DNA from: Streptosporangiaceae bacterium
Lineage (GTDB): Bacteria; Actinomycetota; Actinomycetes; Streptosporangiales; Streptosporangiaceae
DNA: 64,000 bases
Reading direction: 5' to 3'
Assembly: GCA_050011895.1 (NCBI GenBank)
Contig: JBEKIF010000013.1
Location: 27,744-91,743, forward strand
Part shown: piece after piece, positions 2,047-55,860 of the stretch
Position numbering within the stretch: the stretch's first letter is position 1
Layout of the letters: every line of letters begins with the position of its first letter
Program-made: the position numbers and the translations under genes
The notes under the pieces: model-generated
Told to the model about the DNA's origin: nothing
Seen by the model: the letters and a program-made list of their open reading frames with translations, nothing else
Database searches by the model: none

Positions 2047-3147
2047 ATGGTTCATCACGTCCCGCACCGTTTCATGGCCGCGGCGCAGGCAGCGCTGTTC
2101 CGGCTACGCGGCGTGATCCGCCGGCAGTTCATCACCAGGAACCGGCGGCTGGCGTTCGGGCTGGCGATCTCCGTGGTGGCGATCGGCGCGGCAGCGGTCC
2201 GGGTGTCGGTGTCGTGGTTCTCGCCCGGCGTGATGATCCTGCCCATCCTGGCCGGCGGCCTACTGCTGTGGCCGCGGGCGCTGCGAATCCTGTTCTGCGT
2301 GGTCGCTGTGATGCTCGGCTACGACTGGCTGGAGGGCCGCGCTGAGCCTGGCATCGTCGCCACCATCGTTGTCACTGCCCTGATTGCCGATGTGCTCGCC
2401 AGGACCAGGGAGAAGCTTGGCGTCCAGGGACTGCGCGGCGACCAGATGCTGATTGAGCTGCGGGACCGGATCCGTGCCCAGAGCAGGCTGCCCGAACTGC
2501 CTTTTGGCTGGCAGTCCGTTTCGGTGCTCAGGCCAGCAGGGGGCTCGTCGTTCGGCGGCGATTTCGTGGTCTCCGCATGTGACGGGAAAACACTCGAAGT
2601 CGCGCTGGTGGACGTGTCAGGTAAAGGTATCGACGCCGGGACCCGCGCGCTGCTGCTGTCCGGCGCGTTCGGCGGGCTTCTCGGCTCGGTTCCTGCCGGG
2701 CAGTTCCTGGCCTGCTGTAATGCCTACCTGCGGCGCGGCGCCGTCACCGAGGGCTTCGTAACGGCGGTGCACCTAGCGCTTGACCTGGGGACCGGAGAAT
2801 ATGTGGTTGACTCAGCCGGTCACCCGCCAGCGGCGCATTTCGAGGCTGGCAGCGGCAAGTGGCGGCTTACCCAGGCCAGCGGCGTGGTGCTTGGCGTGGT
2901 CCCTGATCTGCGCAGCGTCCCTGAGGGCGGCGCGCTGCGGCCTGGAGATGCGCTGATGCTCTATACCGACGGGCTCGTCGAGGCGCCGGGCCGGGACATC
3001 GACGTGGGCATCGACCGGCTGCTCGGTGCGGCGGACCGGCTGGTGACATCGGGCTTCGGGGCGGGTGCCGCGCGCCTTGTCCAGACGATGCAGGAAGGGG
3101 AGCGCAGCTCCGACGACTGTGCGCTGGTGCTTATCTGGCGGGGCTGA
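2047..3147 (+). CDS. Membrane-anchored PP2C-type (SpoIIE-like) serine phosphatase
   Basis: The N-terminus carries ~3 hydrophobic helices (LAFGLAISVVAIGAAAV, VMILPILAGGLLLW, ILFCVVAVMLGY). The C-terminal PP2C/SpoIIE motifs are GGDFVV, VALVDVSGKGIDAG and LYTDGLVE. The 3' end overlaps cvnD convergently by 17 bp. Confidence 0.75.
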   Translation: MVHHVPHRFMAAAQAALFRLRGVIRRQFITRNRRLAFGLAISVVAIGAAAVRVSVSWFSPGVMILPILAGGLLLWPRALRILFCVVAVMLGYDWLEGRAEPGIVATIVVTALIADVLARTREKLGVQGLRGDQMLIELRDRIRAQSRLPELPFGWQSVSVLRPAGGSSFGGDFVVSACDGKTLEVALVDVSGKGIDAGTRALLLSGAFGGLLGSVPAGQFLACCNAYLRRGAVTEGFVTAVHLALDLGTGEYVVDSAGHPPAAHFEAGSGKWRLTQASGVVLGVVPDLRSVPEGGALRPGDALMLYTDGLVEAPGRDIDVGIDRLLGAADRLVTSGFGAGAARLVQTMQEGERSSDDCALVLIWRG

Positions 3148-3745
3148 CGTAGCCAGGATCCAAGCTGAGCAGGTTGATAGCGTGCTCCACGAGAGCGATC
3201 AGGACATCGCGCGACGATGCCCGCTGGCGCGCATCGCACAGCACGACTGGCACATCGGGATCTAGGTCGAGCGCGGTACGGACGGCGCCCTCGGGAAAGC
3301 GCTTCGCTCCGTCGAAGCAGTTCACCGCCACGATGAAAGGTGTCCCTTGGCATTCGAAGTAGTCAACTGAGGCGAAACAGTCAGCGAGCCGCCGGGTGTC
3401 CGCCATGATCACCGCACCGAGGGCCCCGAGTGCGAGGTCGTCCCACATGAACCAGAACCGGCGCTGGCCTGGCGTGCCGAACAGGTACACGACCAGGTCC
3501 TCGCGGATGGTAATGCGCCCGAAGTCCATCGCGACCGTGGTGGTGGTCTTGTGCTCCACTCCGTCGGTCAAGTCGATATGCGCGCCCGGCTCGCTCAGGT
3601 GCTCCTCGGTCCGCAGCGGCCGGATCTCGGTCACGGAACTCACCATGGTGGTCTTGCCGGCCCCGAAGCCGCCCGCGACGAGGATCTTGATTCCCACCGG
3701 CGTTGGGTGCGAATAGGCACCCTGATCAGAGCTTGCGTAGGCCAT
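3131..3745 (-). CDS. cvnD: Conservon GTPase (CvnD-like, Ras-like ATP/GTP-binding protein)
   Basis: P-loop KILVAGGFGAGKTT and ~200 aa length; it is the last gene of the HK-roadblock-DUF742-GTPase operon typical of Streptomyces conservons. Confidence 0.75.
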   Translation of the reverse strand: MAYASSDQGAYSHPTPVGIKILVAGGFGAGKTTMVSSVTEIRPLRTEEHLSEPGAHIDLTDGVEHKTTTTVAMDFGRITIREDLVVYLFGTPGQRRFWFMWDDLALGALGAVIMADTRRLADCFASVDYFECQGTPFIVAVNCFDGAKRFPEGAVRTALDLDPDVPVVLCDARQRASSRDVLIALVEHAINLLSLDPGYVSPAR

Positions 3746-46432: not shown

Positions 46433-47743
46433 TTACGCGCGTCCCAGGATCCGCACCGTCCAGCCAGCCGCCCGCCAGAACTTATCGTCGAGCGCGCACC
46501 TCGCGTCGATGATATTGCGCTGTGCGACTACCTTGCCGAGAGCGGCCGGATCGATGGCGCGATAGTCTGCCCACTCGGTGAGGTGCAGGACAACATCGGC
46601 GCCCCCGGCAGCCTCGGTGACCGTCTCGGCGTAGCGGAGGTCTGGCCTGGCCAGGGCGGCGTTGCCGGTGGCCACTGGATCGTGTACCTGCACGATGGCG
46701 CCCTCCCGGGTGAGCTGGTCGCAGACAGCGAGACTCGGCGAGTCCCGCACATCGTCACTGCCGGGCTTGAACGCAACGCCGAGCACCGCCACGCGCTGCC
46801 CGGCCAGCGTGCCCCCGACAACCTCCCGCGCGATGTCAGTGACCCGGGTCCTGCGGCTCAGGTTGATAGCGTCCACCTCGCTCAGGAAGCGATCGACGGA
46901 GCCGACTCCGAGCGCCCGCGCCGTGGCCCGGAATGCACGGATGTCCTTCGGCAGGCAGCCACCGCCGAATCCGAGGCCAGGCGACATGAACCTCCCGCCG
47001 ATGCGCTCGTCGTGCGCCAGCGCCGCGGCCAGCCGGATTACGTCGGCGCCCGACGCCTCGCAGACCTCAGCCATGGCGTTGATGAATGAGATCTTCGTGG
47101 CCAGGAACGAGTTGGCCGCAACCTTGACCAGCTCTGCTGTTTCCAGGTCCATGACCAGGCTAGGGGTTCCGTTGCACAGTGGCATGGCATAGGCGTCCCG
47201 CAGCCGGTCCGCGGACCACGACGACGTGACGCCGAAGACGAGGCGGTCCGGTGACAAGCTGTCCTGCACGGCCGTGCCCTCACGGAGGAATTCAGGGTTC
47301 CAGGCAAGCTCGACTTCGTCGCCGGCTGGTGCGTGCTCCCTGATGCGTGTGGTGAGCAGGCGTGCGGTACCGACCGGGACCGTGGACTTCCCGACTACGA
47401 GGCACTGGCGGCTGAGGTGCGGGGCGAGTGCGTCAACGGCAGCGCACACGTACCGCAGGTCGGCCGACGCATCCGCCGACTGGGGGGTCCCGACGCAGAG
47501 GAAGTGGACCTCCCCGAAGTCGCCCACCTCAGCGTATGAGGTGGTGAAGCGCAGCCGTCCGGCCTCGAGGTTCTTCCGCAGCAGGGGCTCCAGGCCCGGC
47601 TCGAAGAACGGCGCCTCGCCGCTCGCCGCCTTGGCCACCTTGGCCGGGTCAACGTCAAGGGCCAGGACATCGTGACCCAGGTCTGCCATGCAGACCGCAT
47701 GCGTGAGACCCAGGTATCCAATCCCGATCACCGTCAGGCGCAT
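46433..47743 (-). CDS. UDP-glucose 6-dehydrogenase (nucleotide-sugar dehydrogenase family)
   Basis: N-terminal Rossmann MRLTVIGIGYLGLTHAV. The catalytic Cys region is GGGCLPKDIRAF. C-terminal UDP-binding domain. The start is set at Met19 of the track ORF. Confidence 0.8.
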   Translation of the reverse strand: MRLTVIGIGYLGLTHAVCMADLGHDVLALDVDPAKVAKAASGEAPFFEPGLEPLLRKNLEAGRLRFTTSYAEVGDFGEVHFLCVGTPQSADASADLRYVCAAVDALAPHLSRQCLVVGKSTVPVGTARLLTTRIREHAPAGDEVELAWNPEFLREGTAVQDSLSPDRLVFGVTSSWSADRLRDAYAMPLCNGTPSLVMDLETAELVKVAANSFLATKISFINAMAEVCEASGADVIRLAAALAHDERIGGRFMSPGLGFGGGCLPKDIRAFRATARALGVGSVDRFLSEVDAINLSRRTRVTDIAREVVGGTLAGQRVAVLGVAFKPGSDDVRDSPSLAVCDQLTREGAIVQVHDPVATGNAALARPDLRYAETVTEAAGGADVVLHLTEWADYRAIDPAALGKVVAQRNIIDARCALDDKFWRAAGWTVRILGRA

Positions 47744-47781
47744 GCGGGGGAAAGGCAGAGTCATTGCCAGTCTCCTTAATC

Positions 47782-48885
47782 TTAGCTGTTCTGACATGGA
47801 ATGTTAGAAATCTGAGCGCTGGCCCTAGTGACGACATTATTGCAGGCGACTATGGTTTGCAGGTGACGGCTCTGCACGTAGATGCCATAACCAGCGCCAG
47901 GTACCGTTGCCTTGTTGCCCCGGAAGATATTTCCGATACCCCAGCCGGGGTAGACGCGGTGTACCTGAAATCCGTCACCGATGCTTTGCACGCCGGTGTT
48001 ATCCAGTATCTTCCAGTCGTTACCTTTCACGTTGACCCAGGCTGTCGCCGCCGATGCAACCATGCCCGTGCCGTTGAAGGTATTGCCGATTATGGTGCCG
48101 CCGGTCGTCCCTTCCTTGATATCTATATTCTCGGCGGTCGTGTCCGCGATGTTGTTGTCCATAAGGACGTTATAATTACTCGCGTCGGGGCGGCAGCCAG
48201 TGTATCTGCACCAGTTCTTGTGAGCGGAGCCGACGTATATTCCTTCGCCAAAGAACTGCTCGTCTAGTCCCGTGTCGCGCACGATGTTCTGGCTGACGAC
48301 GTTGTAGCTGCTGAAAGATCTGAGGTGAATGGCTTCATCTCCCGTCCCGTGCACGAACAGGCCGTAGATGAGATCGTGCGTGGCGCCGTCAGTCACGACG
48401 CCCTTCTGCCCGCCTTCGACGCTGAAGCCCTCCACCCGCCACCATGATGCCTTGTCGAGGTAGAAGGTGTAGCCATTAGTGATGCTCGTGCCCTTGAGCA
48501 CCGCGCTCCTGGCGCCGCACAAGGTGATGGGGGCGGCGGCGGTACCGGATGCGGTGGCCGCGAAGTCGCCGAGATAGACCCCCGGCGCCAGCAAGATCCT
48601 GGCGCCGGGCTGCGCGCGTGCCAGAGCCACTTGCAGCCCAGCGGCGGTCGATACGTTCGTGACCGCCGCCCCGCTGCCGCAGCGGACCACGTTCCCGCCG
48701 CCCGACCGCGATGCCGCGGTGGCTCCGCCGGGCCCAAGCTCGCTGGCGGACGCGGAATGCGTACCGGACGGGGCCGGCGCACCGGCCGGCGAGGATGTTC
48801 CGGCGCATGCGGCCAGCGCGAGCAGGAGGGACCCGGCCACCGCCGTCTGCGCGGCCACCCTCAAGGCCGCGGCGCGCGCCCTCAT
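47782..48885 (-). CDS. Secreted right-handed parallel beta-helix lipoprotein (polysaccharide lyase/hydrolase-like fold)
   Basis: Lipobox LLLALAACAG. There are many NxxxD/N-rich beta-helix rungs (NVVSQNIVRDTG, NVLMDNNIADTT, GNTFNGTG, NIFRGNKAT). The stop overlaps ugd and the start overlaps the upstream gene. Confidence 0.55.
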   Translation of the reverse strand: MRARAAALRVAAQTAVAGSLLLALAACAGTSSPAGAPAPSGTHSASASELGPGGATAASRSGGGNVVRCGSGAAVTNVSTAAGLQVALARAQPGARILLAPGVYLGDFAATASGTAAAPITLCGARSAVLKGTSITNGYTFYLDKASWWRVEGFSVEGGQKGVVTDGATHDLIYGLFVHGTGDEAIHLRSFSSYNVVSQNIVRDTGLDEQFFGEGIYVGSAHKNWCRYTGCRPDASNYNVLMDNNIADTTAENIDIKEGTTGGTIIGNTFNGTGMVASAATAWVNVKGNDWKILDNTGVQSIGDGFQVHRVYPGWGIGNIFRGNKATVPGAGYGIYVQSRHLQTIVACNNVVTRASAQISNIPCQNS

Positions 48886-51074
48886 GGCCGGTCGGCCACT
48901 CGGGGCAGCGGGCAGGTCGCGTCGATCTGCTCGGCGCTGCCATGCCGTGCCACCCGCGGGTACCCGCCGGCGTCCCGGCCATCAGGCAGGACGTACTCCA
49001 GCCTGCGGTCGTGCGGCACTCCGCCAGCCGGCCCCACCCGTTCGAAGGGCCTGCGGCCATCGGGCACCGTGGCGTCCGGCAACCCGGGATCGTAGAGCGC
49101 GCGGCCGTAAGCACCCGCACCCCTCGGCGAGGCATCGTGATTCCCGGACCATGACGGGCCGTCCGGCCCGCCCTTAGCGGCAGCCACCAGCACGGGAGCC
49201 TGCCTCCCCGGGTCGGCCGCCGGGCCGATCCACTGGGTGCTTTCCGGATAGGGATGCTGTGGCGGGCGGCGGCGGCGCGTCCAAAGCCCGCCAACGATCA
49301 CCAGGAAGACGATGCTCAGCCACAGGATGGCAAGCGGATGGAACTCAAGGTAAGTCAAGAAGGTGCCTTTCTCGTGAGGAGCCCAGTCGGCCGTGTTGCT
49401 TCCGGACAAGGCGGGTGGCACGGCGTCAGCGCGCACGTCCACGGCTCGGTAACCGGTCCCCGAGATCACGTTGTCCTTCCCGGAAACGACCGAGTTCGCT
49501 CCGCGGATCGAGATGCCGAAGACGGTGCCCTGGGTAATAAGGCTGTTGTCCACCTCGACGCTGCCGGAACTGCGCACGACGACCGCGATACGGGCACCTG
49601 AGACGGCGTTCCCTGAGACTAGTGTCGCGGGTGCGGTCGGCCCGATGGAGAGCCCGACCCTGGGGCCGCACCGGACGTCGTTGCCGTTCACGATCGTCTT
49701 GCTGGCTCCGTAGCGGAGCGCGATGCCGGTCTGCTTGGCGCACACCTCGTCCGCCTTGAGCACCGCTGCGGTCCCGCCCTCGACGAGGATGCCCGTCCCC
49801 GCGTTGCCGAGCGCGGCACTGTTCTCGATGCGCGTCCCCGACCCTGGTGCCACGGCGTTCCCGGAGGGGGAGGCGGTGCTGACGAGCGGACGTCCGTCGG
49901 CCACGAAGCCGTTGGCCGCGTTGTGCTGCGACACGTCGTCCTGCAAGACGGTCCCGTTGCTCCCGCGGTCAACGTGGAAGCCGTTCTCGCCGTTGCGCAC
50001 CGCCGAGCTCAAGGTGGCCGACGCGCCGACCGTGCCACGGTGGACGTGGAAGCCATCCAGCTGGTTGGACTCGAACAGGTCGGCCGAGAACCTGACGTCC
50101 TCAGAACGAGTCACGAATGCGCCGTACGTGTTGCCCGTGAAGGTCGTCGAGGTCGCACCGCCGGTGCTGGGGTAGTTGGCCAGTCCGGTCCAGGCGACAC
50201 CGCCGGTCCGGCCGCTCCAGAAGCCGAGAAAGGACGCGCGGACATTGGCGAAGGTCATCCGGCCGGCCACCTCACGGATGTACGGCCTGCCGCGGCCGGT
50301 GTCCTTTGCCGGTGTCATCGTCGCTTCGTCCCAGCCCTCCACAGTCAGGGGGCTGTTACTGGTTCCCCGGAACGCCAGGCTGCCTCGCCAGCCGACGATC
50401 GAGGCGGAGCCGGCCGGCGTGTCGTCAAGGTAGAGCGCCCGCACATCAGACGAGGAGAGTTCGAGGTGCGCCCCGGCAGCGACGAATATGTTGTCCTCCA
50501 GAAGCGCCGCGCCGTGCGGCAGTGGCACCAGCGCCCCGTACTGAATGAGATCAGTGGCGGTGTATGTGGGCGACGGTGCGGTGTCCGTGGCCACGCCGCT
50601 GGATGAGTAAGGCGCTCCAGACGTCAGCACGAGGGTGGGCAGCGAGCCGCCGTATTGGACGACCATGGGCTGGTAGGAGCGGAATGAGTCGTGCAGCATC
50701 GCCCGGAGCCAGTTGTCCTGCGCGCTGACCGCCGCCGCCTCCTGGGATTCGCTCACCCCGGGCAAGGTCGCAGGCGGCTGCCACGGGTCGACCGGCCTTG
50801 CGGCCGGCGGTAGCGGCACGCTGCTGAGTGCACTCGGGGCAGGGAGCAGCCGAATCCCGTCGCTGGACGCGGGCGGCGCGACATTGATCTTCAGGTGCAA
50901 GGCAGACAGGATCGTCGGAAGCCCGCCGAGGCACAAGAAGAAGGCCAGCGCGATCACCACGGTATATCCCCTGCGGCGCACTCCCCGGTCGCGGTCAGGG
51001 TGACGGTTCTTGGCCACGTCAGTTCTCCTATCGCAGCGACGCTGCGGACTGGGCCTCGCCACCGATGAGGTCAC
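48882..51074 (-). CDS. Membrane-anchored parallel beta-helix (NosD/CASH-like) protein with a cytoplasmic Pro-rich tail
   Basis: The N-terminal TM is VVIALAFFLCLGGLPTIL. There is a ~450-aa beta-helix repeat region (GNTYGAFVTRSEDVRF, ENGFHVDRGSNGTVLQDDVSQHNAANGFV, NGNDVRCG, SGNAVSGARIAVVV). The second TM is LAILWLSIVFLVIVGGLW. The C-terminal ~130 aa are Pro/Gly/Asp-rich and low-complexity. Confidence 0.55.
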   Translation of the reverse strand: MTSSVARPSPQRRCDRRTDVAKNRHPDRDRGVRRRGYTVVIALAFFLCLGGLPTILSALHLKINVAPPASSDGIRLLPAPSALSSVPLPPAARPVDPWQPPATLPGVSESQEAAAVSAQDNWLRAMLHDSFRSYQPMVVQYGGSLPTLVLTSGAPYSSSGVATDTAPSPTYTATDLIQYGALVPLPHGAALLEDNIFVAAGAHLELSSSDVRALYLDDTPAGSASIVGWRGSLAFRGTSNSPLTVEGWDEATMTPAKDTGRGRPYIREVAGRMTFANVRASFLGFWSGRTGGVAWTGLANYPSTGGATSTTFTGNTYGAFVTRSEDVRFSADLFESNQLDGFHVHRGTVGASATLSSAVRNGENGFHVDRGSNGTVLQDDVSQHNAANGFVADGRPLVSTASPSGNAVAPGSGTRIENSAALGNAGTGILVEGGTAAVLKADEVCAKQTGIALRYGASKTIVNGNDVRCGPRVGLSIGPTAPATLVSGNAVSGARIAVVVRSSGSVEVDNSLITQGTVFGISIRGANSVVSGKDNVISGTGYRAVDVRADAVPPALSGSNTADWAPHEKGTFLTYLEFHPLAILWLSIVFLVIVGGLWTRRRRPPQHPYPESTQWIGPAADPGRQAPVLVAAAKGGPDGPSWSGNHDASPRGAGAYGRALYDPGLPDATVPDGRRPFERVGPAGGVPHDRRLEYVLPDGRDAGGYPRVARHGSAEQIDATCPLPRVADRP

Positions 51075-52284
51075 TGCGGCGGGTGAGCCAGCCGTGGGTG
51101 TTCATCGTGACGAAGGCGTAGGTCTTGACCGGAAGCGCGACGATGATGGTCATGATCGCGACGAGCGGGAGGACCCAGATGTCACCGGGCCGCTGGAGCA
51201 GATGCGAGATCCCGCGCAAGGCCCGGCCGGCGAGCAGCCACGCAATGGCGATCGCGGTAACGTACAGCTGGGGATGGAGCAGCCAGACTGCGAGATAGGC
51301 CATGGCAAAGCCCATGGTCACCGGTGTGAGAATGATCTGCAGGACGCTGAGCTGGCAGATGAACGGCTGGCGCCAGAGCCAGCCCTTCCACATCGCCGTG
51401 AAATAGCAGCGGTAGGAGTTCCTGCTCCAGCGCAGCCGCTGCTTGAGGAAGGCCCGGCCAGTGTCGGGGAACATCGACAGCGCCCGCGCGGTGGACTGGT
51501 ACACGGTCTTGTAGCCGGACCCGAGGACAAGCCAGGTCAGCCGCCCATCGTCGCCTGCCACGCAGTGGCGGCCCAGGAAGAACTCGTCCTCCAGGTGCTT
51601 CAGCACGGGCAGCACGACGCTGCGGCGATAAGCCACGGTCCGCCCGGACAGGCAGGCGACTGCTCCAGCGCGGGACTGTGCCCGGACATAGTCGAGGTAT
51701 CGGACGTCGATCATCCAGTCGGCGACCCGCCGCCATGCGCTCGTTCTTGGCAGGTAGGCATTCTGCCGGGTGCCGACTCCGCCGACCTTCGGGTCCCTGA
51801 ATGGCGCCAGGACCGCAACGAGGAGCCCTGGCTGCCACATCGTGTCCGAGTCAGCGAGGACCAGGATTTCGGAGCTGGCCCTGCGGATGCCGACGCCGAG
51901 CGCCGAGCGCTTGCCCTGGTGCCGGAATGGGAGGACGGTGAGCCGGGAGTCGGCGCGGGCGCGCTGCTGCAGCAGCTGGATGACCTCGACATCGTCGACG
52001 TCGGGAACGACGATGACTTGCGTCGGATTCTCCGCAAGCCACGAGCGCAGGCAGCGGTCGAGTATGCCCGGGTCCTCGCGGTACGCCGGCACGACCACCG
52101 AAGTCGTGGCGGTGAACCCGGGCGGCACCGGGCGGTACACCCGCGACAGCGTGAACCGCAGGAGCCAGACCGACCAGGAGACGAGGCCGACGAGGCCGAG
52201 CGGGACCAGGTGACGCAGTTGCTGCAGCTGCAAGGTGCTGATCTTCGGCACCGCCAGCGCCGCATGGATGACCTGCGAGTGCAT
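51028..52284 (-). CDS. Processive family-2 glycosyltransferase, hyaluronan-synthase-like (HAS class I / chitin-synthase-like)
   Basis: N-terminal TM helices and DSD (LADSDTMW). Also GDDGRLT (compare HAS GDDRHLT), CLSGRTVAYRRS, the Q-R-L-R-W motif (QRLRWSRNSYR) and 4 C-terminal TM helices. Confidence 0.75.
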   Translation of the reverse strand: MHSQVIHAALAVPKISTLQLQQLRHLVPLGLVGLVSWSVWLLRFTLSRVYRPVPPGFTATTSVVVPAYREDPGILDRCLRSWLAENPTQVIVVPDVDDVEVIQLLQQRARADSRLTVLPFRHQGKRSALGVGIRRASSEILVLADSDTMWQPGLLVAVLAPFRDPKVGGVGTRQNAYLPRTSAWRRVADWMIDVRYLDYVRAQSRAGAVACLSGRTVAYRRSVVLPVLKHLEDEFFLGRHCVAGDDGRLTWLVLGSGYKTVYQSTARALSMFPDTGRAFLKQRLRWSRNSYRCYFTAMWKGWLWRQPFICQLSVLQIILTPVTMGFAMAYLAVWLLHPQLYVTAIAIAWLLAGRALRGISHLLQRPGDIWVLPLVAIMTIIVALPVKTYAFVTMNTHGWLTRRSDLIGGEAQSAASLR

Positions 52285-52439
52285 CCCGTCTCCCCGTTAA
52301 GCGATCATGCCGGTCGGCCGGGTCCTGCTGGCCCCGCCGCCTGACTGGCCCACGATCTGAAGCCCCCACCGGCCCCCGTCTGGGCGGTGGATATCTGTAA
52401 AGAGAGGCGTCGGGGCGATTCCGAACGGCGGACTAAATG

Positions 52440-52525
52440 AACTCCAGGTAAACTCTAGGTAAACGGTAAAGATCACGTTTATTCATTGGTTCAGCCCTTG
52501 AATGCACTGTGTTACCATTCATGAC
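52440..52525 (-). promoter_or_regulatory. AT-rich putative promoter/operator region upstream of the HAS-like GT2 operon
   Basis: Local AT-rich island with direct repeats GTAAAC..GTAAAC..GGTAAAG (52448-52470) and a dyad TGAATG-N11-CATTCA (52498-52520). Confidence 0.35.
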
Positions 52526-52636
52526 AAAGCGTGATTGCCGCGGCTCCGCGCTAGACGGCTCCGCGCTCCCGCGTTCCTGCAGAACACGGCCTCGATAGCG
52601 CTTCCACCGCTCGCGGAGCGGTGGAAGCGGAGCCGC

Positions 52637-53689
52637 TCACGAGTCGCGCCTGGATCCCGCAGCCGGGGATTTGTGCGCTGACCGGTCGGCGGTGCGGCGT
52701 GACGCGATGGTTCCGTTGTGGTCGATGGCGGCGTTCCCGCACCGCCCGGCCCGCTGCGGCGGACGCGATGCTTCCGGCGTCACCTGCTGAGGCGCGCGGA
52801 AGGAGGCGACCAGGCGGGCCACGAGCGTGGCGAGGAAGACCTGCCCAGTTATCGCCTCGATGACGGCGACCGCCTGTCCGCCGCTCTGCGCGGCCGTGAA
52901 GTCGCCGTATCCGAGGGTCGTCAGCGTGGTGAAGCTGAAGTACTGGAAAGTCTGAGTCGTGCCGGGGCGCCCGCCAGCGAAGAACTGGTCGCCGCCGAAA
53001 TGGAACATTCCAGCATAGAAAGCGGCGAACATCAGCCCGAGGATCAGGTAGGCGCTCACTGCGCCGTAGATGCTCTGGAGAGTGACCGTGCCCATTTTAA
53101 GGACGCGCTCGACAATGATCACGACAGTCAGCAGCAGCACCAGGCCGGTCCAGAAATTCGCGATCCCGTCGCCTATCTCGCTGATCCTGCTCAGCGCAAG
53201 CCAAGCGGAGATCGCCGAGCCGACCAGCGCGACGCCGATGACAAGCTGCACAGTCCGTCGCCGAAACCGGGACGCGCGCAAGGTGAGGATCGCCACGGTA
53301 ACAAACAGCACGATCTGGATGAAGTTTACCCAGCCAGCGCTCGTGAACGCTGACAGCAGATAGGTGAAGATCAGCAGCAGGAGCAGAAACCCGTATCGAC
53401 GACGCGGCAGCGGCACGCCAGGGCTGGGGCGTGCCGCGTGCCCCGCCCTGGGTGGCACCGTCGCCGCCTCCTCAAATTCACCCGATGCGCGATGGCCAGG
53501 TCGTGCCTGGCGCATTTCACGCTTCTGTGCGCCAGCGTGAGCGCCTGTGCCCCCGCGCCGCATCACCCCGTGCGGATGACGCGCGGCAGGTAACGACCGC
53601 CGCATCCTTGGCCTGCTGTCGGAGGCAGGTGCGACGACGCGCAGGCATGCAACAGGCGACGAGGAGCTAACTGATGGCTGAGCAGGCAA
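52637..53689 (-). CDS. Potassium channel (TLGYGD selectivity filter) with ~5 TM helices before the pore
   Basis: Pore helix plus filter FSFTTLTTLGYGDF, followed by an inner helix AVAVIEAITGQVFLATLVARLV. Several upstream TM helices are present. The first ~90 residues of the track ORF are Arg/Pro-rich, so the true start is probably downstream of 53689. Confidence 0.65.
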   Translation of the reverse strand: MPAQPSVSSSSPVACLRVVAPASDSRPRMRRSLPAARHPHGVMRRGGTGAHAGAQKREMRQARPGHRASGEFEEAATVPPRAGHAARPSPGVPLPRRRYGFLLLLLIFTYLLSAFTSAGWVNFIQIVLFVTVAILTLRASRFRRRTVQLVIGVALVGSAISAWLALSRISEIGDGIANFWTGLVLLLTVVIIVERVLKMGTVTLQSIYGAVSAYLILGLMFAAFYAGMFHFGGDQFFAGGRPGTTQTFQYFSFTTLTTLGYGDFTAAQSGGQAVAVIEAITGQVFLATLVARLVASFRAPQQVTPEASRPPQRAGRCGNAAIDHNGTIASRRTADRSAHKSPAAGSRRDS

Positions 53690-55860
53690 CCAAGGATCCG
53701 AGTGGGCGCAGCACCCGGGCCGGCACCGGGCGGCGCGAGGCGGCTAAAACGGCACCGCCGCGGCAGGGCGCGGCGCGGCCCGCGAGGCCCGTGGCGGCAC
53801 CAGCGCGACAACGCGCGGCGCGGCGCACCAAACCGGCCAAGCCGGCCAGGCCCAGGCCTCCGGGGACGGGGCAGCGCACGGCAGCGCACGCACCCGCAAA
53901 GCCCGCGGTACGGCGAACCCAGTCGGTCAAGCTCGCAGGCGCAACGACGGCCAAGCCCACGACGGTTACGCGCGCCGGGTCCGCCAAGCCCACGACGGCC
54001 GGGCCCACGACCGCTAGGCCCACGACCGCTAGGCCCACGACCGCTAGGCCCACGACCGTCGGCACGACCGCCAAACGCGCGGTGCGGCGCACTCCAGCCA
54101 AGCCAGCCGCGGCGGGCACGACTGCCGCCAAGCGCCCAGCCCAGCGCACGCCAGCCAAGCCAGCCAAGCCAGCCGCGGCGGGCACGACTGCCGCCAAGCG
54201 CCCAGCCCAGCGCACGCCAGCCAAGCCAGCCAAGCCCGCTGCGGCCGGGACGACGGCCGCCAAGCTCGCCGCCCGGCGCGCGCCCGCTAGCTCGCCCAGG
54301 CCCACGGCGCCCCGGACGACAGGACAGCGCACGGCGCGGCGTACTCAGGCCGCCAAGCCGGGCAAGCCCGCAGCGGCTGCGCGGCGCGGGGTAGCGCCAA
54401 CCGCGGCGGTAGCGGCGGCAGCGGCAGCACAGCCCGCGACGCGCCGGGCCAGGCCCGAGCCCTCGTCACCGCGGCTGAGCCCGGCCGAGCGCGTCGCACG
54501 CGGCAAGGCGGCGCGGGCCGCGGTGCCAAGGGAGGCCCACGCGACGCTCGATCTGCCCGCGGACCGGCCCGATCCGGTCGGCCTGCTCGAAAGCCAGGCG
54601 GCCTCACGGCTGCCTGGCCTGGTGCCGATCCGCTACGGCCGGATGCTCGTCTCCCCGTTCAGCTACTTCCGCGGCGCCGCGTTGCCGATGGCTTCCGACC
54701 TGGCCAGCACCCCATCGTCCGGCATCATCGTGCAGGCCTGCGGGGACGCGCACCTGTCGAACTTCGGATTCTTCGCTTCACCCGAGCGCCGGCTCGTCTT
54801 CGACGTCAATGACTTCGACGAGACGCTGCCTGGGCCTTGGGAATGGGATGTCAAGCGGCTGGCGGCCAGCCTGGAGATAGCCGGACGCGACAGCGGGTTC
54901 TCCGGCACGGAGCGGCGCCAGATCGTGCTGGCCGCGACCGGGAGCTACCGCAAGGCCATGCGGGAGTTCGCCGACATGAGCAACCTGGATGTCTGGTACG
55001 CCAGTGCCGACGTGGACCGGCTACGCGCGAACGTAGATGCGCAGGTGGACAAGCGGCGGCGCAAGATGCTGGCGAAGGGCGTCGCCAAGGCCCAGAACCG
55101 GACCAGCATGCAGGAACTCAGCAAGCTAACCGGCATGGTGGATGGTCGGCCTAAGATCATCGCCGACCCGCCGCTTATCGTCCCGCTGGCCGACCTGCTG
55201 CCAGAGCAGCTGGACGCCAGCGACATCGAGAGTCAGATCCGCGGCCTGATCGTCAACTACTCGCACACGCTCGAATACAGCCGCCGGATCCTGCTCAGGC
55301 AGTTCGAGTTCGCCGATATGGCCCACAAGGTAGTCGGTGTCGGCAGCGTGGGCACCCGGTGCTGGATCGTGCTGACGATGGGGCGCGACGAGACCGATCC
55401 GCTGTTCCTGCAGGTCAAGGAGGCCCAGCCGTCAGTGCTCAGCGCGTTCGCCGGAGCCAGCATATTCAGCAACGAAGGCGAGCGCGTGGTCACCGGCCAG
55501 CGCCTGATGCAGGCGGTCAGCGACATCTTCCTGGGCTGGCAGCGGGTCAACGGCATCGACGGGAAGACGCGCGACTTCTACATCCGTCAGTTGCGGGACT
55601 GGAAGCTGTCCGTTGAGATCGGCGAGCTGGTGCCCAATGGCATGCGCATCTACGGCGAGACCTGCGGCTGGACCCTGGCCCGCGCGCACGCCCGGTCCGG
55701 TGACCGGATCGCGATCGCCGCATACCTGGGCGGCAAGGACATCTTCGACCAGGCCATCGCCGATTTCGCGGCAGCCTACGCGGACCAGAACGAGAGCGAC
55801 TACCGCGCCCTGGCCGCCGCGCGCGAGCATGGCCGGATCATCGCCACGACGAACGTGTGA
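53674..55860 (+). CDS. DUF2252 family protein with a ~270-aa N-terminal Lys/Ala/Pro/Thr-rich histone-H1-like repeat extension
   Basis: The C-terminal 450 aa match the DUF2252 pattern (RGKAARAAVPREAHA..DRPDPVGLLE..PIRYGRMLVSPFSYFRGAA..CGDAHLSNFG..FDVNDFDETLPGPWEWDVKRL). The N-terminus has PTTARPTTARPTTARPTT and two copies of a 22-aa repeat (KRPAQRTPAKPAKPAAAGTTAA), each encoded by a 66-bp DNA repeat (~54112-54243). Confidence 0.65.
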   Translation: MAEQATKDPSGRSTRAGTGRREAAKTAPPRQGAARPARPVAAPARQRAARRTKPAKPARPRPPGTGQRTAAHAPAKPAVRRTQSVKLAGATTAKPTTVTRAGSAKPTTAGPTTARPTTARPTTARPTTVGTTAKRAVRRTPAKPAAAGTTAAKRPAQRTPAKPAKPAAAGTTAAKRPAQRTPAKPAKPAAAGTTAAKLAARRAPASSPRPTAPRTTGQRTARRTQAAKPGKPAAAARRGVAPTAAVAAAAAAQPATRRARPEPSSPRLSPAERVARGKAARAAVPREAHATLDLPADRPDPVGLLESQAASRLPGLVPIRYGRMLVSPFSYFRGAALPMASDLASTPSSGIIVQACGDAHLSNFGFFASPERRLVFDVNDFDETLPGPWEWDVKRLAASLEIAGRDSGFSGTERRQIVLAATGSYRKAMREFADMSNLDVWYASADVDRLRANVDAQVDKRRRKMLAKGVAKAQNRTSMQELSKLTGMVDGRPKIIADPPLIVPLADLLPEQLDASDIESQIRGLIVNYSHTLEYSRRILLRQFEFADMAHKVVGVGSVGTRCWIVLTMGRDETDPLFLQVKEAQPSVLSAFAGASIFSNEGERVVTGQRLMQAVSDIFLGWQRVNGIDGKTRDFYIRQLRDWKLSVEIGELVPNGMRIYGETCGWTLARAHARSGDRIAIAAYLGGKDIFDQAIADFAAAYADQNESDYRALAAAREHGRIIATTNV

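Follow-up and report, generated by a model that had tools for sequence, protein, structure and literature searches.

What polymer would a bacterium make with a processive synthase related to hyaluronan synthases (HAS), two β-helix proteins and a dehydrogenase that supplies a uronic acid? The question is raised by four adjacent genes in a 64,000-nucleotide stretch of DNA (here called the window) from a Streptosporangiaceae bacterium (assembly GCA_050011895.1, contig JBEKIF010000013.1, positions 27,744 to 91,743). The original prediction, made from the letters of the window, was that a HAS-like family-2 glycosyltransferase (GT2) makes a glucuronate-containing exopolysaccharide that is then modified or cleaved at the membrane, with the streptococcal hasAB genes as the analogy. 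The core of this idea is supported here by the homologies of the lyase and of an AlgG-like protein, by the matches of the GT2 and by the conservation of the gene block. The analogy did not fare as well, since the evidence does not show hyaluronan as the product; a 4-linked polyglucuronate fits better, and the closest analogy is the alginate system (Alg8/AlgG/AlgL/AlgD). Based on comparisons of sequences and predicted structures, we consider it probable, with moderate confidence, that the operon encodes a synthase-dependent system for an extracellular or envelope polyuronate made from UDP-glucuronate (UDP-GlcA) and that it is laid out like the alginate core.

A conserved four-gene block

The four minus-strand open reading frames (ORFs) that had been predicted were found at 51028-52284, 48882-51074, 47782-48885 and 46433-47797. 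In the order of transcription, they encode a GT2 membrane synthase of the HAS/NodC clade (51028..52284, 418 residues, assigned from the ORF list and from Pfam, NCBIfam and PDB matches), an AlgG-homologous right-handed β-helix membrane protein (48882..51017, 711 residues from a GTG at 51017, within a longest ORF of 730 residues), a lipoprotein of the polyuronate lyase family PL31 (47782..48885, 367 residues, with the lipobox LAAC at Cys27), and a UDP-glucose 6-dehydrogenase (UGD; 46433..47764, 443 residues from the likely start ATG at 47764). Overlapping stops and starts had been proposed for the block, and a firm overlap exists at one junction only, the ATGA at 48885-48882, while the GT2/AlgG-like and PL31/UGD junctions are short spacers. 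The GT2 stop codon TAG (51030-51028) is followed by AGGAGA and the GTG at 51017, with a spacer of 10 nucleotides (nt), and this start gives the same 711-residue protein as a 100% identical database entry (P0121) from a Streptosporangiaceae metagenome-assembled genome (MAG). Likewise, the PL31 stop codon TAA (47784-47782) is followed by AAGGAG and the ATG at 47764, with a spacer of 17 nt. Because these spacers are just 10 nt and 17 nt long, the GT2, AlgG-like, PL31 and UGD genes still make up one tightly packed operon. The GC content is 57 to 61% between 47500 and 48500, from the 3' half of the PL31 gene into the beginning of the UGD gene, compared to approximately 69% in the rest of the region.

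A scan for relatives of the GT2 with one genome per species returned at least 499 loci, 79 of which were fetched for neighborhood counts. The expectation that the block is conserved as a unit was borne out across phyla: the AlgG-like gene was next after the GT2 gene in all 72 testable loci, the PL31 gene followed in 59 of 62, and a UGD gene was found within 8 kb of this triad in 39 of 55. Carriers include Streptosporangiaceae, Frankia, Geodermatophilaceae, Actinoplanes, Streptomyces, Pseudonocardiales, Chloroflexota and Dormibacterota, and the GT2 is very strongly conserved among relatives across phyla, with 62 to 96% identity. The position of the UGD gene varies between groups. Most actinomycete clades carry it downstream in the same orientation. 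In Frankia and some Geodermatophilaceae, it lies upstream and is transcribed divergently, and in Chloroflexota and Dormibacterota, it is upstream with the same orientation. An all-against-all comparison of the ORFs in 60 loci found no conserved neighbor family besides the block itself. Several of the loci (L035-L037, L040, L042, L053, L055, L059 and L071) carry a GT2 that is 63 to 75% identical to that of the window in MAGs assigned to Dormibacterota, Chloroflexota or "Melainabacteria," which suggests either that the block has moved from one soil phylum to another or that the MAGs were binned wrongly. In one locus (L024, 14638-17237), a second GT2 and AlgG-like pair lies directly downstream of a complete four-gene block, a tandem duplication of the synthase module.

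The dehydrogenase and the synthase

The identification of the last gene as a UDP-glucose 6-dehydrogenase held up, with matches to all three Pfam UDPG_MGDP_dh domains. The protein scored 406 bits against the NCBIfam model TIGR03026 (cutoff of 190) and 345, 341 and 166 bits against TuaD, AglM and UDP-ManNAc dehydrogenase, respectively, staying under the narrow equivalog cutoffs. Against structures in the PDB, it scored 260 to 324 bits with UDP-glucose dehydrogenases and 175 with GDP-mannose dehydrogenase (GMD), and an identity as the latter was rejected by this ranking. No transmembrane (TM) segment was found in a hydropathy scan of the protein. The UGD of the Chloroflexota and Dormibacterota loci belongs to another lineage, which is 38% identical to the window UGD and scored 429 bits against TuaD and 349 against PDB UDP-glucose dehydrogenases compared to 175 against GMD. 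Since there are two separate UGD lineages, a supply of UDP-GlcA was recruited beside the triad at least twice, and in our view, this repeated recruitment is the strongest single argument for a polymer that would be built from glucuronate (GlcA).

In the GT2, all motifs that had been quoted in support of a HAS-like enzyme are present (DSD, GDDGRLT, CLSGRTVAYRRS and QRLRWSRNSYR), and a C-terminal GWLTR can be added to them. The TM helices claimed for both ends of the protein were also recovered, with hydropathy giving segments at residues 26-44, 308-336 and 367-392. Pfam returned generic GT2 families only (Glyco_tranf_2_3 at 8e-35), together with a weak C-terminal match to Chitin_synth_2. The best NCBIfam match was NodC (TIGR04242), which at 139 bits lies far below the cutoff of 550, and PgaC scored 66 bits. 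In a single-sequence search of the PDB, the top matches were Xenopus HAS1 (8smm; E = 1.3e-18) and the HAS of a Chlorella virus (E = 1e-15), and a search with the family profile gave the same two enzymes with E values of 1.9e-23 and 3e-21, the next match being at 2.7e-9. A closer kinship with cellulose or chitin synthases would have spoken for another kind of product, and no BcsA, CesA or chitin synthase was found below an E value of 0.01 among solved structures, where the hyaluronan synthases stood on top. The alignment to HAS takes in the C-terminal TM region as well as the catalytic domain and spans DSD, GDD and QxxRW together with GW(L/G)T(R/S) at the C terminus, with differences in two HAS motifs, where C(I/V)(S/G)GP reads CLSGRT and GDDR reads GDDGR. 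Homologues are labeled generically and conflictingly in JGI annotations, some as "hyaluronan synthase" and many as "cellulose synthase/PNAG synthase-like." By these comparisons, the GT2 is a processive synthase of the HAS/NodC clade that forms a distinct subfamily, and its sequence does not fix its donor sugars.

The PL31 lyase

The third gene had been read as encoding a lipobox-bearing secreted β-helix protein, which agrees with a signal peptide ending in LAAC, and the β-helix fold that had been assigned to both this protein and the AlgG-like protein was found in each as matches to Pfam Beta_helix/NosD. The lipoprotein matched the PL31 lyase PsAly (PDB 6kfn) with an E value of 1.7e-45 over residues 77-329; the chain numbering of this entry is offset by 34 from the PsAly numbering. 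The catalytic Tyr184 and Lys221 of PsAly and its cation ligands Glu181, Glu216 and Asp219 (residue roles from PMC6796002) are identical in the window lyase and in 65 of 65 orthologues, and Lys128, His154, Arg156 and Lys252 are likewise conserved. By sequence, then, the lipoprotein is a member of the PL31 polysaccharide lyases. The founding members of this family, from Saccharophagus degradans and Streptomyces hygroscopicus, are endo-β-1,4-glucuronan lyases (PMC6442616), while PsAly prefers polymannuronate (PMC6796002), and a Cellulophaga enzyme related to the PL31-containing CelAly has been reported to cut both alginate and glucuronan (PMC13235733).

The orthologues are split at the position of PsAly Asp250, which is Asn in the window lyase and in 35 of the 65 (the Streptosporangiaceae-type clade, Chloroflexota and Dormibacterota) and is kept as Asp in the other 30, including those of Frankia, Streptomyces and Actinoplanes. 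This split tracks a motif variant in the AlgG-like protein, namely, His/Arg or other residues at position 343, and the match between the two may reflect a shift of activity between the lyase and the AlgG-like protein.

The AlgG-like protein

The second gene had been described as encoding a 730-residue protein with two TM segments bracketing a β-helix, and hydropathy does place TM segments at residues 37-59 and 578-599, followed by a variable, Pro-rich tail on the cytoplasmic side. The β-helix domains of both this protein and the lyase lie outside the membrane in the hydropathy-based topology. A single-sequence search with the AlgG-like protein matched no solved structure in the PDB. An AlphaFold2 (AF2) model of residues 1-640 has a confident β-helix core, and when this model was searched with Foldseek, the right-handed parallel β-helix was closest to AlgG/AlgE structures. 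AlgG, one of several folds that had been proposed for comparison, gave the best matches (E = 5e-10 to 8e-9), followed by AlgE4 (1.4e-4) and the first nonepimerase (4e-4). A profile of the family gave weak matches to PDB sequences (E = 0.1 to 1.2), four of five of which were mannuronan epimerases, and its alignment puts the catalytic His154 of AlgE4 on His345 of the window protein.

A sequence-level connection comes from an orthologue in a Chloroflexota MAG (L071), which matched AlgG with an E value of 1.2e-11, including NIGYGFDPHDHS against NIVYGIDPHDRS and HGMVFSR against HGIIISR, and which was itself matched by the window protein at 5e-53. The window motif D340-G-F-H-V-H345-R346 aligns with YGFDPHD of this orthologue with no gaps across the motif. 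Because the window protein matches the L071 orthologue and this orthologue matches AlgG, the two can be linked, although indirectly, and the window protein is, as judged from these alignments, an AlgG homologue. The L071 protein (2220-3545), which sits in a UGD-GT2 context, is the sole member with the full canonical YGFDPHD among the 73 members from related loci that we aligned for a survey of motifs.

Across these 73 members, the epimerase motif is not kept at its Tyr, first Asp and Pro positions, whereas His345 is found in 69, Arg346 in 70 and Gly341 in more than 90%. Arg370 of the window protein (in GFHVDR) aligns with AlgG Arg345 (in IISR) by way of GMVFSR in the L071 protein and is kept in most members but not all. 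Also kept across phyla are LGFWSGRTGG, GRxYxR, both TM helices and a Pro-Tyr pair (P608-Y609) by the membrane on the cytoplasmic side. In the mechanism described for AlgG, proton abstraction from C5 is the task of the His in DPHD, neutralization of the carboxylate is that of an Arg, and the Tyr positions a proton-donating water, with the first two catalytic steps being common to lyases and epimerases (PMC4444821). Read against this scheme, the AlgG homologue keeps the putative carboxylate-binding and proton-abstraction residues and is without the proposed reprotonation residue.

With 528 representatives at an E value of <1e-3 in a set of 1.84 billion proteins, the family is compact. When the AlgG-like and PL31 families were compared profile against profile, no relationship emerged (probability of 0.4%), and the two β-helix proteins are thus not recent paralogues. 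In Microbispora amethystogenes (L073, 9828-13351), two tandem AlgG-like matches lie between the GT2 and PL31 genes. In Streptomyces gramineus, a 1,052-residue protein annotated as a single chain (P0422) matches the AlgG-like protein over residues 1-505 with 89% identity and has a PL31 lyase as its C terminus; the AlgG-like match stops before the second TM helix, and the protein could be a real fusion or the result of a frameshift at the ATGA junction.

Proposed pathway and alternatives

We propose the following pathway for the four proteins. UGD would, as expected from its family membership, oxidize UDP-glucose to UDP-GlcA, and the HAS/NodC-type GT2 would polymerize a chain containing 4-linked GlcA, most likely with a β-1,4-glucuronan backbone, and thread it through its own membrane channel. 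The AlgG homologue, held beside the synthase by two TM helices and the membrane-adjacent motif and possibly in a physical complex with it, would receive the emerging chain in its β-helix groove, where its homology suggests that it could epimerize some of the GlcA to L-iduronate or otherwise process or guide the chain. A β-elimination lyase needs a uronic acid that is substituted at O4, and the membrane-tethered PL31 lyase, which has the catalytic residues of its family, would cut 4-linked uronate bonds in this manner and could thereby trim the polymer, release it or clear it away, a role like that of AlgL toward alginate.

Several observations weigh against this pathway. The sequence of the GT2 does not reveal its donor sugars, and the nearest relatives with solved structures make a GlcA/GlcNAc (N-acetylglucosamine) heteropolymer; an AF2 model of the GT2, made from an alignment of 15 sequences, was unusable (pLDDT of 48 and pTM of 0.41). 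A UGD gene is missing from the fetched neighborhood in 16 of 55 loci. In the AlgG homologue of the window, the canonical YG(F/I)DPH(D/E) reads DGFHVHR, with only the Gly, Phe and His kept, and the Tyr and first Asp that are implicated in epimerization are absent. In the lyase, the position of PsAly Asp250 is occupied by Asn (residue 285), and a D250N mutant of PsAly retains 0.25% activity. Finally, the characterized Streptomyces glucuronan lyase AGF62897.1 could not be matched to a cluster of this kind, being absent from the ten Streptomyces PL31 clusters examined.

Other products would account for part of the same evidence. If the GT2 were a true class I hyaluronan synthase, or made some other alternating GlcA/hexosamine polymer, both β-helix proteins would act on that chain. 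This would explain why HAS enzymes are its only strong matches in the PDB, with an alignment that includes the C-terminal TM region as well as the catalytic domain, and why close homologues are named accordingly in some JGI entries, and the lyase could act on such a chain since GlcA is 4-linked in hyaluronan. However, the HAS matches reach only 70 to 86 bits, CLSGRT and GDDGR stand in place of the HAS motifs, the PL31 members described in the cited papers were assigned to glucuronan or alginate and not to hyaluronan (PMC6442616, PMC6796002, PMC13235733), and AlgG-type enzymes act on homopolyuronates (PMC4444821); we regard a hyaluronan-type product as improbable. Far less credible still is a neutral chain of GlcNAc or glucose, a NodC-like chito-oligosaccharide or a cellulose-like polymer, with UGD as a chance neighbor. 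The NodC and Chitin_synth_2 matches and the many "cellulose synthase/PNAG synthase-like" names would be in line with it, but the NodC score is a fraction of its cutoff, the linked lyase and AlgG homologue belong to families that act on uronates, and UGD was recruited to the cluster from two separate lineages. True alginate, a polymannuronate/guluronate made from GDP-mannuronate supplied by the dehydrogenase, would suit the AlgG homologue and a lyase family that includes enzymes preferring polymannuronate. It is equally hard to reconcile with the scores of the two dehydrogenase lineages, 324 and 349 bits against UGD compared to 175 against the AlgD-type GMD, and no NCBIfam model of a mannuronan synthase matched the GT2, making this product very improbable.

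A further alternative concerns the AlgG step alone and is otherwise compatible with a 4-linked polyglucuronate. BcsB, which serves the cellulose synthase BcsA, and AlgG itself in its scaffold role are the comparisons for a noncatalytic function in which the AlgG-like protein would be a partner anchored in the membrane, either binding and guiding the chain or activating the synthase, and cleavage by the PL31 lyase would be the only modification. The loss of the canonical epimerase Tyr and Asp from nearly all family members speaks for this, as does the conservation across phyla of both TM helices and P608-Y609, and Pseudomonas mutants that lack AlgG yield oligomers degraded by the lyase, which is evidence of a protective role (PMC4444821). 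On the other hand, His345, Arg346 and, in most members, Arg370 are kept at positions of the AlgG catalytic motifs, which suggests that the active-site groove is still under selection, and the L071 orthologue has the full epimerase motif. A nonenzymatic partner is therefore an alternative that we take seriously while considering it rather unlikely.

Relation to known systems

The core of the alginate operon of Pseudomonas and Azotobacter (Alg8, AlgG, AlgL and AlgD) offers the closest parallel to the polyglucuronate system that we propose. In both cases, a GT2 synthase, an AlgG-type β-helix protein, a polyuronate lyase and an enzyme of the UDPG/GDP-mannose dehydrogenase family are encoded in one operon, and a 4-linked polyuronate would be the common target. 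The differences are also clear. The predicted precursor here is UDP-GlcA instead of GDP-mannuronate, the synthase is HAS/NodC-like instead of Alg8, and the lyase is a β-helix enzyme of PL31 instead of PL5. The AlgG homologue is anchored by two TM helices and is mostly without DPHD, and no PilZ/Alg44-type partner, acetylation genes or outer membrane export parts were found here. In the Pfam and NCBIfam results for the four proteins, neither PilZ nor another domain that binds cyclic di-GMP was detected.

The class I HAS operons, such as the streptococcal hasA-hasB genes and the Chlorella virus HAS with its UGD, likewise encode a membrane GT2 of about 420 residues together with a UGD. The DxD, GDD, QxxRW and C-terminal W-x-T-R-type motifs are common to both, and HAS is the best match among solved structures. 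In contrast to these operons, the similarity amounts to approximately 70 to 86 bits with altered SGP and GDDR motifs, the two obligatory β-helix partners of the present system have no counterpart there, and use of GlcNAc is not indicated here. The type 3 capsule of Streptococcus pneumoniae (Cps3S with the UGD Cps3D) is another example of a GlcA polymer made by a HAS-related processive GT2 with a UGD and without Wzx/Wzy. Since GlcA is 3-linked in the type 3 polymer, a lyase cannot act on it by elimination, and the type 3 locus is without a lyase or an epimerase-like partner. With regard to the lyase, membership alongside PsAly and the glucuronan lyases of Saccharophagus and Streptomyces is clear from the sequence. 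The window enzyme differs from them in being a lipoprotein (it is TM anchored in Streptomyces) encoded inside a biosynthetic operon instead of a secreted degradative enzyme, and in having, like its clade, Asn for Asp250.

A search of open-access papers and preprints found no described glucuronan synthase, no actinobacterial HAS-like cluster and no account of this cluster, which is not proof that none exists. In the databases, the AlgG-like and lyase proteins are annotated only as "right-handed parallel β-helix repeat protein," "NosD" or "hypothetical." A 2024 study of brown algal cell wall genes noted that, among bacteria, it is the actinobacteria that have the nearest relatives of the mannuronan epimerases of these algae, and papers on brown algae describe actinobacteria as having relatives of alginate epimerases and lyases with no known alginate-type pathway. 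The present cluster is a candidate for the missing context of these relatives. The triad is found in at least 499 species-level genomes, including those of Frankia plant symbionts, of the plant pathogen Streptomyces scabiei and of uncultured lineages that are abundant in soil, and our computational evidence points to an acidic polymer system that has not been described before.

A more specific and bolder version of this reading would make the block the first identified bacterial glucuronan synthase system, with the AlgG-derived partner as a polyglucuronate C5-epimerase that converts D-GlcA to L-iduronate in the chain. The product would be a GlcA/iduronate copolymer, the gluco-series counterpart of alginate, widespread in soil Actinomycetota (Frankia, Streptomyces including S. 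scabiei, and Actinoplanes), Chloroflexota and Dormibacterota. We offer this version as speculative and find it doubtful in its entirety. The polyglucuronate reading itself, if right, would provide a gene for the synthesis of β-1,4-glucuronan and add to the AlgG family a new branch whose active site is remodeled, and it would give PL31 lyases a biological role beyond the degradation of algal polymers. It would also mean that Gram-positive bacteria can assemble a polyuronate in an alginate-like fashion without periplasmic or outer membrane parts.

The upstream region and neighboring genes

Upstream of the GT2 gene, on the same strand, lies a putative control region (52285..52598) with an AT-rich island, direct repeats, a dyad and a GC-rich leader. 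The AT-rich island that had been pointed out is present, with a GC content of 40 to 50% at approximately 52400-52520 compared to about 69% elsewhere. The TGAATG-N11-CATTCA dyad described together with it does occur, at 52499-52521. In the four closest relatives (L001-L004), however, the left arm is not conserved, and for this reason, the dyad was not counted as an operator or as a component of the system. At 52443-52464 (minus strand), approximately 160 to 180 nt upstream of the GT2 start, GTTTACCTAGA and GTTTACCTGGA form a pair of direct repeats with a spacing of 11 nt. We take these repeats to resemble the 11-nt GTTCACC units bound by PhoP in Streptomyces (PHO boxes). Similar pairs were found upstream of the GT2 gene in L001 (7808-7840), L002 (7816-7848) and L012 (7776-7797), where about 0.3 loci would be expected by chance, and none were found in the Streptomyces or Frankia loci. 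By analogy with teichuronic acid in Bacillus, such repeats could mean that the operon is induced under phosphate limitation.

The GC-rich leader fills the stretch of about 150 nt (52285-52440) that separates the AT-rich island from the GT2 start. It is well conserved in the four closest relatives and contains short hairpins at 52366-52390. An Rfam scan of the 5' region gave no match, and neither did a scan of the upstream region for the sigma-70 consensus; the sigma-70 and terminator scans were uninformative. Right after the stop codon of the adjacent K+ channel gene, an inverted repeat at 52599..52629 (minus strand) forms a hairpin with a perfect 14-nt stem and a 3-nt loop, which likely marks off the operon transcript from that of the channel gene.

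The K+ channel gene had been noted as an immediate neighbor, and a gene with an Ion_trans_2 domain (Pfam E = 2e-9) does adjoin the block; it neighbors the block in the two closest relatives only and is not part of the system. The same is true of the DUF2252 gene, which also neighbors the block only in the two closest relatives. Along with a gene for an ICMT-like methyltransferase, both were rejected as members of the system since, where these genes adjoin the block at all, it is only in the closest relatives. The DUF2252 protein (53674-55860, plus strand) has an N-terminal extension of approximately 300 residues rich in Ala, Pro, Lys and Thr, which is encoded by tandem repeats of 15 nt and 66 nt at 53988-54320, a stretch with 79% GC.

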